From: a virus
Taxonomy: Duplodnaviria; Heunggongvirae; Uroviricota; Caudoviricetes
IMG/VR virus record: IMGVR_UViG_2711768034_000001
Coordinates: 1-6,739 of that record
Reading direction: 5' to 3' (one strand)
DNA: 6,739 bases
The first letter of the stretch is position 1; each line of letters starts with the position of its first letter. The notes under the pieces are model-generated. The model was given only the letters and a program-made list of their open reading frames with translations, did no database searches and was not told where the DNA came from. Of this stretch, positions 1-4,770 are shown piece by piece. The position numbers and the translations under genes were made by a program.

Positions 1-170
1 CGCTTCCGCATGTCAGCGATGGTGGCGTTCGCCTTCTCCAGTTCACTGGCCTTGTTATCGCGCTGCTCTTTGTAGGCGATTGCGTTATCACGGTAATGAT
101 TAACAGCCCATGACAGGCAAACGATGATGCAGATAACCAGAGCGGAGATAATCGCGGTTACTCTGCTCAT
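1..170 (-). CDS. Rz: Rz spanin (inner-membrane subunit), N-terminal part only; the gene continues beyond position 1
   Basis: Reverse complement of 1..170 translates [57 protein letters not shown] with no stop, which I recognise as the lambda Rz N-terminus. Its ATG (168..170) overlaps the R stop (167..169) as ATGA. It sits directly downstream of R as in lambda. Confidence 0.85.
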
Positions 171-643
171 ACCTCAATCTCTCTGACCGTTCCGCCAACT
201 TCTTTGAATTTTGCAATCAGGCTGTCTGCCTTATGCTCAAACTGGCCATAGCCTGCCCCGGGCAATGACGCCCAGATATTGCTGCAACGGTCGATTGCCT
301 GACGAATATCACCGCGGTCAATCATCGGTAAAGCGCCACGCTCTTTAATCTGTTGCAGTGCCACAGCGTCCTGGCTTTTCGGAGAGAAGTCTTTCAGGCC
401 AAGCTGCTTGCGGTAGGCATCCCACCAACGGGAAAGAAGCTGGTAACGTCCGGCGGCTGTTGATTTGAGTTTTGGGTTTAGCGTGACAAGTTTGCGAGGG
501 TGATCGGAGTAATCAGTGAATAGCTCTCCGCCAACAATGACGTCATAACCATGATTTCTGGTTTTCTGCCGTCCGTTATCAGTTCCCTCTGACCACGCCA
601 GCATATCGAGGAACGCCTTACGTTGATTATTGATTTCCACCAT
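167..643 (-). CDS. R: Endolysin R (lambda-type lytic transglycosylase)
   Basis: The 158-aa ORF is near-identical to my recollection of lambda R ([24 protein letters not shown]...), including the catalytic-Glu WSEGTD context. ATG at 641..643. It overlaps the 3' end of S by 17 nt, as in lambda. Confidence 0.95.
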
Positions 644-950
644 CTTCTACTCCGGCTTTTTTAGCAGCGAAGCGTTTGATAAGCGAACCAATCGAGTCAG
701 TACCGATGTAGCCGATGAACACGCTCGTTATATAAGCGAGATTGCTACTTAGTCCGGCGAAGTCGAGAAGGTCACGAATGAACCAGGCGATAATGGCGCA
801 CATCGTTGCGTCGATTACTGTTTTTGTAAACGCACCGCCATTATATCTGCCGCGAAGGTACGCCATTGCAAACGCAAGGATTGCCCCGATGCCTTGTTCC
901 TTTGCCGCGAGAATGGCGGCTAACAGGTCATGTTTTTCTGGCATCTTCAT
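627..950 (-). CDS. S: Holin/antiholin S with dual-start motif (S107 from Met1, S105 from Met3)
   Basis: The 107-aa ORF begins [20 protein letters not shown], the lambda S dual-start motif, and is hydrophobic with TM segments. ATG at 948..950 and second ATG at 942..944. The upstream minus-strand sequence CCCCTTATTGGGGCTAAGACATGAAGATG matches the lambda S leader. Confidence 0.95.
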
Positions 951-970
951 GTCTTAGCCCCAATAAGGGG
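951..970 (-). promoter_or_regulatory. S translation-initiation leader with sdi-type stem-loop (CCCC-TTATT-GGGG) just upstream of the dual start
   Basis: Plus 958..970 is ccccaataagggg, a 4-bp GC stem with 5-nt loop, positioned as the lambda sdi hairpin that sets the S107/S105 ratio. The role is inferred from established lambda biology. Confidence 0.5.
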
Positions 971-1070
971 ATTTGCTCTATTTATTTAGGAATAAGGTCG
1001 ATTACTGATAGAACAAATCCAGGCTACTGTGTTTAGTAATCAGATTTGTTCGTGACCGATATGCACGGGC

Positions 1071-1105
1071 AAAACGGCAGGAGGCTGTTAGCGCGACCTC
1101 CTGCC
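1071..1105 (-). terminator. Candidate intrinsic terminator (tR'-like) between the tRNA genes and S
   Basis: Perfect 9-bp GC-rich inverted repeat ggcaggagg (1076..1084) and cctcctgcc (1097..1105) with a 12-nt loop. On the minus strand the stem is followed by GTTTTG (plus 1071..1075 aaaac). The U-tract is short, so confidence is modest. Confidence 0.35.
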
Positions 1106-1192
1106 ACCCGCTTTCACGAAGATCATGTGTAGAAGGCCGCAGCGTAACTATCACTGATGAATTCAGGATAGCCAGTGGCTACGGCTCAGTTA

Positions 1193-1268
1193 TGGTGCTG
1201 TTTAACGGACTTGAACCGCTACCCATTCGCTTACAAGGCGACCGCTCTACCATTGGAGCTAAAACAGC
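1193..1268 (-). tRNA. tRNA, anticodon read as UGU (Thr-like), 76 nt with encoded CCA
   Basis: Minus-strand sequence GCTGTTTTAGCTCCAATGGTAGAGCGGTCGCCTTGTAAGCGAATGGGTAGCGGTTCAAGTCCGTTAAACAGCACCA folds as a cloverleaf: 7-bp acceptor GCTGTTT/AAACAGC, D-arm GCTC-CAATGGTA-GAGC, anticodon loop CTTGTAA, T-arm AGCGG-TTCAAGT-CCGTT, discriminator A. One G-A mismatch at the top of the anticodon stem. Confidence 0.7.
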
Positions 1269-1273
1269 ATGTT

Positions 1274-1348
1274 TGGCGGGACAGCGTGGACTCGAACCAC
1301 GATAAGAAGGTTAACAGCCTTCCGTAATGACCTTTATACGACTGACCC
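1274..1348 (-). tRNA. tRNA, anticodon read as GUU (Asn-like), 75 nt with encoded CCA
   Basis: Minus-strand sequence GGGTCAGTCGTATAAAGGTCATTACGGAAGGCTGTTAACCTTCTTATCGTGGTTCGAGTCCACGCTGTCCCGCCA. Perfect anticodon stem GAAGG/CCTTC with loop CTGTTAA, T-arm CGTGG-TTCGAGT-CCACG, discriminator G. The acceptor stem has one T:T mismatch at pair 4-69 and the D-stem is only 3 bp, so it may be a degenerate or pseudo-tRNA. Confidence 0.55.
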
Positions 1349-1411
1349 AAATAAAAAAAGCCACCGTTGCAACTTAAGAGTCACTAATGGCAGCTTACCT
1401 TCTAATTATGG

Positions 1412-1930
1412 CTAAATGGATAATTGCATGTCAAGGCTTTTAACAGCAACATGCTTAACTTTCTCAACACGTTTACGCATTTTAAAAGCATTTTGCATTG
1501 GCTGGTATAAAACAAATAATGACGCTTTCAGGATGTCGTCAATTTCGTTTCTACAGGTTGCCAGTGAAGGTTTTCTCCATCCCTCGCCACCACGTCCACA
1601 CATCTTGCGTGGCTTTGCAGTCGCGTGATAGTAGGATGCAATTGCTCGCTTAGATGAACCATGAGCGTAGTAGCTTAGGAGGATGCCAAAGGCTTTCTTG
1701 TCAATGTACATGACGGAATCGACGACCTGAGAAATCAACATTCCATCATCATCATTACACATTGGCCTTGTCATAACTCTTCCCGGCTCTACGCTCTCCA
1801 TGAACTTCGCTATTACGCTGCTCATGCGCTTTTCCAGACGACCTGAATAAACCCATGCGCCCCACAGTTCAAGCCAGCCATTCAGCCACTCATGCTGTTC
1901 TTTGGTGAGGTTTAGTTCTCTTATGCCCAC
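1412..1930 (-). CDS. Q: Late-gene antiterminator Q, non-lambda type (82/933W-like Phage_antitermQ family)
   Basis: The 172-aa ORF lies between ninI and the lysis genes. It has the W-x-x-W-G-A-W motif (LELWGAWV) and the Cys/Asp-rich [10 protein letters not shown] segment, which parallel the ERWGAWA and RPQCCDDDAM motifs I recall from 933W-type Q. It is not lambda Q. The start is GTG at 1928..1930, with no in-frame ATG nearby, and overlaps the ninI stop by 10 nt. Confidence 0.7.
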
Positions 1931-2592
1931 GCGCCTTCTCCCTGTACCTGAATCAATGTGAGGTTTCCGCAGAACACTGCGCCGGTATCGATATACATCT
2001 GGTTGGCAAATTTGAGTGGTTTCACTGCTGGCGTATGACCAAAGATGAACGTGTCCGCGCCTTTGATTTCTTTCACGATCCCGTCTTGTGAGTTGCCGAT
2101 TCGTTCGCGGTTCCAGATTACCTGCTGATGATCAACTGGCTTTCCAAACTCGTATTCATCACAAGGATAATCGGCGTGGCAAATGACATATTTTTTACCT
2201 TTGCTCACCAGTTCGATAATTAACGGAAGTTCATCTGCTTTATGGGCAAGAGCTTTAGCCAGAATCTCTTTGTCGTAATCGAGATTGAAGAACCAGCCAC
2301 CGCCATTAAGCAGCCAGTGATTGACGTTTCCGCGCTCTGATAAGCCATCAATCATCATTTGCTCATGGTTTCCACGTACAGCTCTGAACCAGGGGAATGT
2401 GATTAATTCCAGGCATTCGACGTTCTCTATACCGCGATCAACCAAATCGCCAACCGAGATAAGCAGGTCTTTTTTGGTGTCGAATCCAATTGTCTCCAGT
2501 TTTTTCATCAGGTTCGTGTAGCATCCGTGCAGATCGCCAACTACCCAAATATTTCGGTATTTGCTGCCATCAATTCTTTCGTAGATATTCAT
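1921..2592 (-). CDS. ninI: NinI Ser/Thr protein phosphatase (lambda PPase homolog)
   Basis: The 223-aa ORF has the metallophosphatase motifs GDLHG, GDLVDRG and GNHE, and is near-identical to lambda NinI as I recall it (…[26 protein letters not shown]…). ATG at 2590..2592 overlaps the ninG stop as ATGA. Confidence 0.95.
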
Positions 2593-4738: not shown

Positions 4739-4770
4739 AAATAAAAAGGCCTGCGATTACCAGCAGGCCT
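4739..4770 (-). terminator. Intrinsic terminator (tR2-like) between the helicase gene and the nin region
   Basis: 8-bp inverted repeat aggcctgc (4747..4754) and gcaggcct (4763..4770) with an 8-nt loop. On the minus strand the stem is followed directly by TTTTTATTT (plus 4739..4746). It lies 29 nt downstream of the helicase stop and just upstream of the membrane ORF SD. Confidence 0.55.

Follow-up and report, generated by a model that had tools for sequence, protein, structure and literature searches.

A known tRNA-Asn(GUU)/tRNA-Thr(UGU) cassette lies downstream of the late terminator tR′ in a lambdoid phage and very probably heads its Q-dependent late operon

The Q-to-S interval of a lambdoid phage sequence of 6,739 nucleotides (IMG/VR record IMGVR_UViG_2711768034_000001; the whole stretch analyzed is referred to below as the window) carries two tRNA genes that are the long-annotated, already known tRNA-Asn/tRNA-Thr pair of lambdoid phages. 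This tRNA-Asn(GUU)/tRNA-Thr(UGU) cassette very probably forms the first genes of the Q-dependent late operon, where it would add decoding capacity for Asn and Thr(ACA) codons. Both genes lie on the minus strand directly downstream of an intrinsic terminator, and both retain a conserved tRNA structure. As a finding this matters little, since annotation of the genes, their location, and their likely late expression goes back to the phage 21 and Sf6 records, and the phage L and epsilon34 genome papers discuss the genes. Among the small points added here is that the U4:U69 mismatch of tRNA-Asn is a conserved trait of the cassette and not damage. An initial annotation of the same DNA was correct in its observation but partly wrong in its interpretation, namely on the terminator, the transcript, and the idea of a pseudogene.

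RESULTS

Two tRNA genes occupy the interval between Q and S

The window corresponds to the late-control region of a lambdoid phage. It is read from right to left in window coordinates, on the minus strand, which the initial annotation had left unstated, and has the gene order DnaB-like helicase, nin genes, NinI-type phosphatase, Q, two tRNA genes, S, and R. A Pfam run identified the NinI-type phosphatase (1921-2592, minus strand) and, likewise, NinG. The late antiterminator Q (1412-1930, minus strand; 172 aa) matched PF06530 (Phage_antitermQ) with 90 bits and is of the phage 21/phage L gp23 type, sharing 98% identity with phage L gp23 and 86% with phage 21 Q. The holin gene S (627-950, minus strand), which has a dual start and is the first protein gene of the late operon, matched PF05106 with 105 bits; the endolysin gene R (167-643, minus strand) had no Pfam match and was named by similarity hits. 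The Q and S matches bear out the flanking genes that the initial annotation had assumed. Examination of the ORFs in the Q-to-S interval revealed no credible protein ORF, in agreement with the earlier statement that a toxin gene is absent from this locus. Neither complete E. coli genomes nor phage records contained an exact source of the whole window; the best matches were mosaic, at 97% identity.

Across the whole window, ARAGORN called exactly two tRNA genes, both on the minus strand: tRNA-Asn(GUU) at 1274-1348 and tRNA-Thr(UGU) at 1193-1268, separated by a 5-nt spacer. The same two genes were the only Rfam matches in the window, with RF00005 scores of 55.3 bits (E = 3e-11) for tRNA-Asn and 61.2 bits (E = 8e-13) for tRNA-Thr; the gathering score of this family is 29 bits, and both matches span the full length of the model. 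The two methods therefore agree on the Thr-like UGU and Asn-like GUU genes, and on the folds and anticodons, that had been read from the sequence at this position. The tRNA-Asn gene has its anticodon at 1315-1313, discriminator base G73, and an encoded 3′ CCA, and its T-loop, G18 G19, and U33 are intact as well. The tRNA-Thr gene has its anticodon at 1235-1233, the pairs G1-C72 and C2-G71, A73, and an encoded 3′ CCA. In the Rfam alignment, the T:T acceptor-stem mismatch and 3-bp D-stem noticed earlier in the Asn gene reappear as U4:U69 (bases 1345/1281) and as a nonstandard U13:U22 pair that shortens the D-stem to 3 bp. The alignment also flags a G27:A43 mismatch in tRNA-Thr, which was absent from the initial annotation.

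The pair belongs to a widespread and previously annotated cassette

The novelty implied by the initial annotation did not hold up, as many records already annotate the cassette and it is treated in PMC8022706 and PMC2629481. The Q-to-S interval shows 96-98% identity to many phage records that annotate both tRNAs (96.5% to Sf6 with a 491-base Q-to-S query), and the tRNA stretch by itself shows 98.2% identity to phage 21 and BTP1 (171-base query). Carriers include phage 21, Sf6, BTP1, HK446, vB_SosS_Oslo, and SPN9CC, and out of 5426 complete E. coli genomes, 369 (about 7%) have the cassette, annotated by RefSeq as tRNA-Thr and tRNA-Asn. The Sf6 record lists, in order, pR′, a qut site, a “putative late mRNA leader terminator tR′,” tRNA-Asn, and tRNA-Thr (“similar to phage 21”), and in the phage 21 record the two tRNAs come after the −35/−10 elements, a Q-binding element, the start site, a sigma-dependent pause element, and a terminator (PMID 1704887).

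Phage 21 (OL657228, AJ237660) and Sf6 (AF547987) share with the window the same genes in the same order with 5-nt spacing, an identical tRNA-Asn, a tR′ directly upstream of the tRNAs, and a Q gene of the Q21 family. The window differs from both by one rare base change in the tR′ stem. It differs from phage 21 in that its Q-binding element and its −10 region follow the phage L/Sf6 type, and also in its lysis genes, which are lambda-type S and R where phage 21 has a pinholin and a SAR endolysin. Its tRNA-Thr has three bases unlike Sf6, including a compensated 5:68 pair (U5-A68 versus G5-C68 in Sf6). Phage L and ST64T resemble the window in Q (98%), in the putative Q-binding element, and in an identical tRNA-Asn (PMC8022706). 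tR′ is also the same as in phage L except at base 1388 and for one fewer T in the U-run, but the second gene of phage L is a diverged derivative that is annotated as tRNA-Leu(UAA) and was not called by ARAGORN. The phage L paper reports this same arrangement; according to it, the first tRNA lies 46 bp past the putative late start, and the Asn and Thr tRNAs of Sf6 occupy the corresponding position (PMC8022706). These tRNAs are likewise marked for P22-like prophages in the epsilon34 genome paper.

Relatives also carry Phe, Arg(UCU), Gly(UCC), and Leu-like tRNAs at this position, a variety suggestive of general tRNA cargo. The ileZ-argN-argO tRNAs of Stx phages such as 933W occupy this Q-to-S slot too, on the Q-dependent late transcript; those tRNAs differ in serving rare Ile and Arg codons and in being followed by the stx genes.

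The late terminator tR′ lies between pR′ and the tRNA genes

The top promoter-like site of the whole window (11/12 matches) is located at 1405-1434 on the minus strand and comprises a −35 hexamer TTGACA (1434-1429), an 18-nt spacer, and a −10 hexamer CATAAT (1410-1405). We assign it as the late promoter pR′, which is annotated at the corresponding site in the Sf6 and HK75 records. Between the hexamers, at 1425-1410, are the tandem 8-mers AATTATCC/ATTTAGCC, which have been proposed as the Q-binding element of phage L (PMC8022706). This putative Q-binding element shares base 1410 with the −10 hexamer and extends over the 3′ end of Q. The start site is predicted at about 1395-1398, from alignment with the one annotated in phage 21.

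The late-leader intrinsic terminator tR′ (1349-1394, minus strand) consists of a hairpin (1394-1360) and a U7 run (1359-1353) followed by AUUU; tRNA-Asn starts at 1348, the terminator ending 5 nt before it. The late leader folds with −14.4 kcal/mol (z = −2.7). The window tR′ equals the annotated phage 21 terminator (PMID 1704887) and the Sf6 terminator save for base 1388. From TAAGCUGCC to the last base of tRNA-Asn, a single base and the number of Ts in the T-run are all that distinguish the window, Sf6, phage 21, phage L, and JLK-2012. The G-to-A change at 1388 is rare (2/103 copies) and breaks one tR′ stem pair, giving a hairpin of −11.6 kcal/mol compared to −17.4 kcal/mol for the consensus. 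The terminated leader would be about 40-46 nt long, with both tRNAs downstream of the terminator, and the promoter scan found no other promoter-like site between tR′ and the tRNAs. Given that the first terminator (1394-1353) is upstream of both tRNAs and that no promoter intervenes, the cassette falls outside the short constitutive pR′ transcript and is predicted to stand at the head of the Q-dependent late operon.

Other members of the family show the same disposition. In mEp506, which has a lambda-type Q, the leader is near-identical to that of lambda through the hairpin and U-run, and the same tRNA-Asn starts directly after this U-run, the junction falling inside the T-tract. We take the mEp506 leader to represent lambda pR′, the 6S leader, and tR′, and its U-run to be the 6S RNA terminator. 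In a Klebsiella phage with a diverged cassette, an 11-bp hairpin followed by T7 lies ~90 nt upstream of tRNA-Asn. Among 174 family copies, 102 have a leader of the Q21/L type and 17 one of the lambda type, and 130 have a T-run of at least 5 ending within 16 nt upstream of tRNA-Asn. A terminator thus precedes the tRNAs in each of the three Q/leader contexts that were studied closely, and in the two most frequent ones (Q21/L type and lambda type) the cassette is joined exactly at the terminator U-run, a junction that would fix its regulation as Q dependent. These systems share the logic of lambda 6S RNA, in which a constitutive promoter yields a short terminated leader and Q permits read-through; the leader is about 45 nt (phage 21 type) here compared to 194 nt in lambda, and the tRNAs are outside it.

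The hairpin upstream of S belongs to a lambda-type leader

The initial annotation had raised the possibility that a hairpin at 1071-1105, downstream of both tRNAs, is a tR′-type terminator, so that the tRNAs would sit on a 6S-like constitutive transcript and be made in the lysogen. The inverted repeat is real (GGCAGGAGG at 1105-1097 and CCUCCUGCC at 1084-1076, minus strand), folds stably when flanks are included (−28.4 kcal/mol, z = −3.4, for the minus-strand RNA), and has GUUUUG after it on the transcribed strand. Lambda pR′ is moreover constitutive, which also speaks for the proposal. Its position nevertheless contradicts it, since the canonical hairpin and U7 terminator sits between pR′ and the tRNAs, as do the corresponding terminators in mEp506, where the tRNAs start right at the end of the lambda late-leader U-run, and in the Klebsiella phage. 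We therefore regard this arrangement as extremely improbable.

The U-run of the hairpin is only four long and lies inside a larger helix in the predicted fold. Of 73 related copies, most have a mismatch at the fifth stem pair (A:C, T:C, or G:A), and only 2 show a compensated T:A. At 1076-1105 the hairpin corresponds to lambda 45031-45060 with a single loop difference (A in lambda, G at 1085 in the window), an element that is unannotated in both lambda records examined. This correspondence places it within the lambda-type S leader, far downstream of lambda tR′. In the window, the lambda-type leader of the lysis genes spans 951-1190 (minus strand), and between 1190 and the S start the window is near-identical to both lambda and HK75, which have ~200 bp of unrelated sequence in place of the tRNAs. 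The 1071-1105 hairpin is thus not the late-leader terminator tR′, but it may act as a weak secondary terminator or an RNA-stability element. A consensus terminator scan of 900-1500 returned no match; as it also missed the annotated phage 21 tR′, the stem of which is internally bulged, this result is uninformative on either hairpin. A small stem-loop, CCCC-UUAU-UGGGG, is also present at 970-958, just upstream of the dual S start codons.

Some expression in lysogens could arise by another route. Because pR′ is constitutive in lambda, any leak through tR′ would give stable tRNAs, and the window tR′ is weaker than the consensus, making some leak plausible; with the rare stem-weakening base at 1388, Q-independent read-through may be higher in the window. 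In the BTP1 lysogen transcriptome paper, a list of genes with TPM >100 is given as “excluding the two tRNA genes,” a wording that hints at a tRNA signal in lysogen cultures and may reflect a strong one without induction. The supplement of that study reports Q and S at about 5-48 TPM and has no tRNA rows, and BTP1 is spontaneously induced in 0.2% of cells. It is possible that some cassette tRNA is present in lysogen cultures, through leak or through induced cells and not through termination at the 1071-1105 hairpin.

The mismatches of both tRNAs are conserved

The U4:U69 mismatch and the 3-bp D-stem had raised the suspicion that tRNA-Asn may be nonfunctional or need editing. To examine the structure of both genes, ~170 copies of tRNA-Asn and 146 copies of tRNA-Thr were gathered from IMG/VR contigs and reference phages, representing 23 distinct tRNA-Asn variants, in two clades, and 19 distinct tRNA-Thr variants. 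In tRNA-Asn, positions 4 and 69 are an unpaired U4:U69 in 21 of the 23 variants, with U:G or G:U in single variants, and U13:U22 is never paired. Over the same set, other stem pairs have changed by compensatory double substitution, at 6:67 (A-U to G-C), 7:66 (G-C to A-U), and 28:42 (A-U to C-G). The tRNA-Thr variants covary at 3:70, 5:68, 6:67, 49:65, and 51:63, and all 19 keep G27:A43. The covariation scores of 0.117 (tRNA-Asn) and 0.172 (tRNA-Thr) were reached in 0 of 500 shuffles and exceeded all slid controls, although the sequences compared are close relatives and the covariation therefore rests on few events.

Retention of U4:U69 while other stem pairs covary argues for a conserved trait rather than decay. 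As judged from these comparisons, the mismatches of tRNA-Asn and tRNA-Thr are conserved traits of working-looking genes and not damage, and the suggestion that tRNA-Asn is nonfunctional or edited seems unlikely. Decay or loss of function of this gene would be compatible with the two nonstandard pairs, which are real, and with the fully paired acceptor stems of the tRNA-Asn genes of P1, Cyrano, and T5. We nonetheless consider it very unlikely, given a tRNA-Asn sequence that is unchanged among the window, Sf6, phage 21, phage L, and JLK-2012, the compensatory changes around a persistent U4:U69, and the presence of the T-loop, G18 G19, U33, anticodon, G73, and CCA. A non-Watson-Crick 13:22 pair is, in addition, common in working tRNAs.

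The cassette tRNAs only distantly resemble host asnT and thrU. Asn identity in E. coli depends on G34 U35 U36 and G73, and Thr identity depends on G1-C72, C2-G71, G35, and U36; a sequence check found these elements in the respective cassette tRNAs.

A late decoding supplement is compatible with codon use

Together, these features suggest the following course of expression. Transcription would initiate at the constitutive pR′ (1434-1405) and, without Q, stop about 40-46 nt on, at the tR′ hairpin and U7 (1394-1353). Q, a member of the Q21 family with a phage-L-type binding element, would modify RNA polymerase and allow read-through of tR′, producing a single RNA that contains tRNA-Asn, the 5-nt spacer, tRNA-Thr, the lambda-type leader, and the lysis and virion genes. 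Host tRNA-processing enzymes would then excise both tRNAs, and host AsnRS and ThrRS would charge them. The phage could benefit from a raised capacity for Asn and Thr(ACA) decoding during late protein synthesis, and the phage L paper argues likewise for codon supply (PMC8022706).

Codon use in late genes only partly follows this expectation. ACA codons are enriched in the late genes of the carrier Sf6, at 17.3 per 1000 codons (30% of Thr codons), compared to 6.5 in a 37-gene sample of the K-12 host, and Asn codons amount to 48.5 and 35.7 per 1000, respectively. However, the late genes of phage 21, which has the cassette (ACA, 12.5; Asn, 37.7 per 1000 codons), and of P22, which does not (ACA, 12.9; Asn, 52.9), are alike, and those of lambda, also without it, are host-like (ACA, 8.2; Asn, 35.8). 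Codon use consequently does not follow the presence of the cassette, with values in P22 at least as high as in phage 21, and the comparison of carriers and noncarriers is indecisive beyond the enrichment in Sf6. Codon supply is compatible with these mixed data but does not separate carriers from noncarriers. In addition, E. coli has several tRNA-Asn genes, so the supply of this tRNA is not obviously limiting.

Resemblance of the pair to targets of the PARIS effector AriB

A different function would be counter-defense, with the cassette supplying either decoys or substitutes that resist cleavage for host tRNAs under attack by tRNA-targeting immunity such as PARIS AriB. By their anticodons, Thr(UGU) and Asn(GUU) match two of the three main AriB targets, and the Lys, Thr, and Asn tRNAs of T5 together neutralize PARIS; PMC12409363 reports both the targets and the rescue by T5 tRNAs. 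Cleavage by AriB occurs after C40 in U36-A-A-U39-C40-A41 and is abolished by changing U39 to A and reduced by changing A41 to C. Lambda, too, is restricted by PARIS (PMC9122126). At positions 39 and 41, the cassette tRNA-Thr has G39 and G41 compared to U39 and A41 in host thrU, and the cassette tRNA-Asn has C39 and U41 compared to U39 and C41 in host asnT. G39 is shared by the tRNA-Thr(UGU) genes of P1, Cyrano, and T5, and an adjacent Asn-then-Thr pair recurs in P1 and Cyrano. Position 16 of the D-loop was considered as a further AriB determinant and dropped, as the numbering of the tRNA-Thr D-loop (CAAUGGUA) is ambiguous.

Several observations weigh against such a function. tRNA-Lys(UUU), the prime target of AriB, is found in no cassette variant, and the T5 tRNA-Lys was needed for rescue in published tests. 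The cassette tRNAs would be made only late, the P1 tRNA-Asn retains U39-C40-A41, and the Phe, Arg(UCU), Gly, and Leu-like tRNAs of the slot in relatives resemble general cargo. As diverged tRNAs differ at several stem positions anyway, the differences at 39 and 41 are weak evidence. Overall, we think it unlikely that the cassette, with positions 39 and 41 altered, supplies resistant copies or decoys, and a similarly low probability is given to the broader view that the Asn(GUU)/Thr(UGU) pair, recurring in lambdoid phages, P1, and T5-like phages, serves mainly something other than codon supply. A limited literature search found no published link between AriB and the lambdoid cassette. If such a link were true, it would extend a mechanism known from the virulent phage T5 to a cassette carried in about 7% of complete E. 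coli genomes, and the match to AriB targets could explain why this pair recurs in unrelated coliphages.

Late decoding from the Q-dependent operon remains our preferred reading for the window, and the pairs outside the lambdoid family differ from it in context. In P1 (ban operon) and the 108-kb phage Cyrano, the Asn(GUU) and Thr(UGU) genes are adjacent in the same order, 2-5 nt apart, and their tRNA-Thr shares ~80% identity and G39 with that of the window. Their tRNA-Asn genes have fully paired acceptor stems and are much more diverged in sequence from that of the window, and the P1 pair lies in a C1-controlled early operon, unlike the late operon of the window.

Occurrence of the tRNA pair and features of tRNA-Thr

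The order found in the window's cassette, tRNA-Asn(GUU) followed directly by tRNA-Thr(UGU), also occurs in Cyrano, a phage of 108 kb (locus L190, 1473-1625), and in P1 (locus L191, 1125-1278), whose pair follows the ban promoters controlled by C1. The two genes are adjacent in both of these phages; those for the same tRNAs in T5 are separated by about 5 kb. The D-loop of the window tRNA-Thr reads CAAUGGUA. At position 14 of this tRNA (window 1255), a C aligns to the normally invariant A14, and C, U, or G is found among its relatives. In addition, G27 and A43 (window 1242 and 1226) face each other unpaired, as this position is in all 19 of 19 variants. The P1 and Cyrano homologues differ from the window tRNA-Thr in both respects, having A14 and a paired 27:43.

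Variant second tRNAs and possible remnants in tRNA-less phages

In JLK-2012 (locus L007, 988-1141), the second tRNA is a chimera whose 5′ third matches the cassette tRNA-Thr, the remainder being similar to thrU of E. coli; the chimera was absent from the ARAGORN calls for this locus. Downstream of it lie a tRNA-Gly(UCC) and tciA/tciB, and the latter two also follow the Asn/Thr tRNAs in P1. Asn and Gly(UCC) tRNAs were found together in eight IMG/VR loci. In phage L (locus L006), the gene annotated as tRNA-Leu(UAA) (988-1059) has an acceptor stem common to the cassette tRNA-Thr, with a rebuilt and shorter D and anticodon region, and it was likewise not called by ARAGORN on that locus. This gene may have arisen as a derivative that is decaying or has switched its anticodon.

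HK75 carries a T-arm and acceptor-like fragment, GCCGGTTCGATTCCGGC CGCCACAACC, at the slot of the window's tRNAs (locus L002, 838-896), which gives a sub-threshold match to the tmRNA/tRNA clan (20 bits, E = 2e-5). In lambda (locus L003, about 1150-1180), AACAGCAC, which is the 3′ acceptor strand of the window tRNA-Thr, adjoins the junction. The tRNA-less versions of the Q-to-S slot may have had tRNA-bearing ancestors.

Variation in the tR′ stem and other control elements

The leader hairpin (1394-1360, minus strand) has an A at window 1388, within the stem of the late-leader terminator tR′. Of 103 related copies, 88 carry a G at this position and only two, the window included, have the A. This base disrupts a G-C pair of the stem (predicted -11.6 versus -17.4 kcal/mol), and the change might let more transcription pass into the tRNAs without Q.

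At window 957, shortly before the two start codons of S, the sequence is GGGGC, whereas lambda, Sf6, and HK75 read GGGGG. A single base thus differs in the region of the stem-loop and ribosome-binding site, which in lambda sets the holin/antiholin ratio.

Finally, directly past the helicase gene (window 4747-4770, minus strand), the sequence AGGCCTGC-loop-GCAGGCCT then TTTTATTT strongly resembles a terminator; a lambda tR2-like terminator is annotated at the equivalent position in Sf6 and P22.
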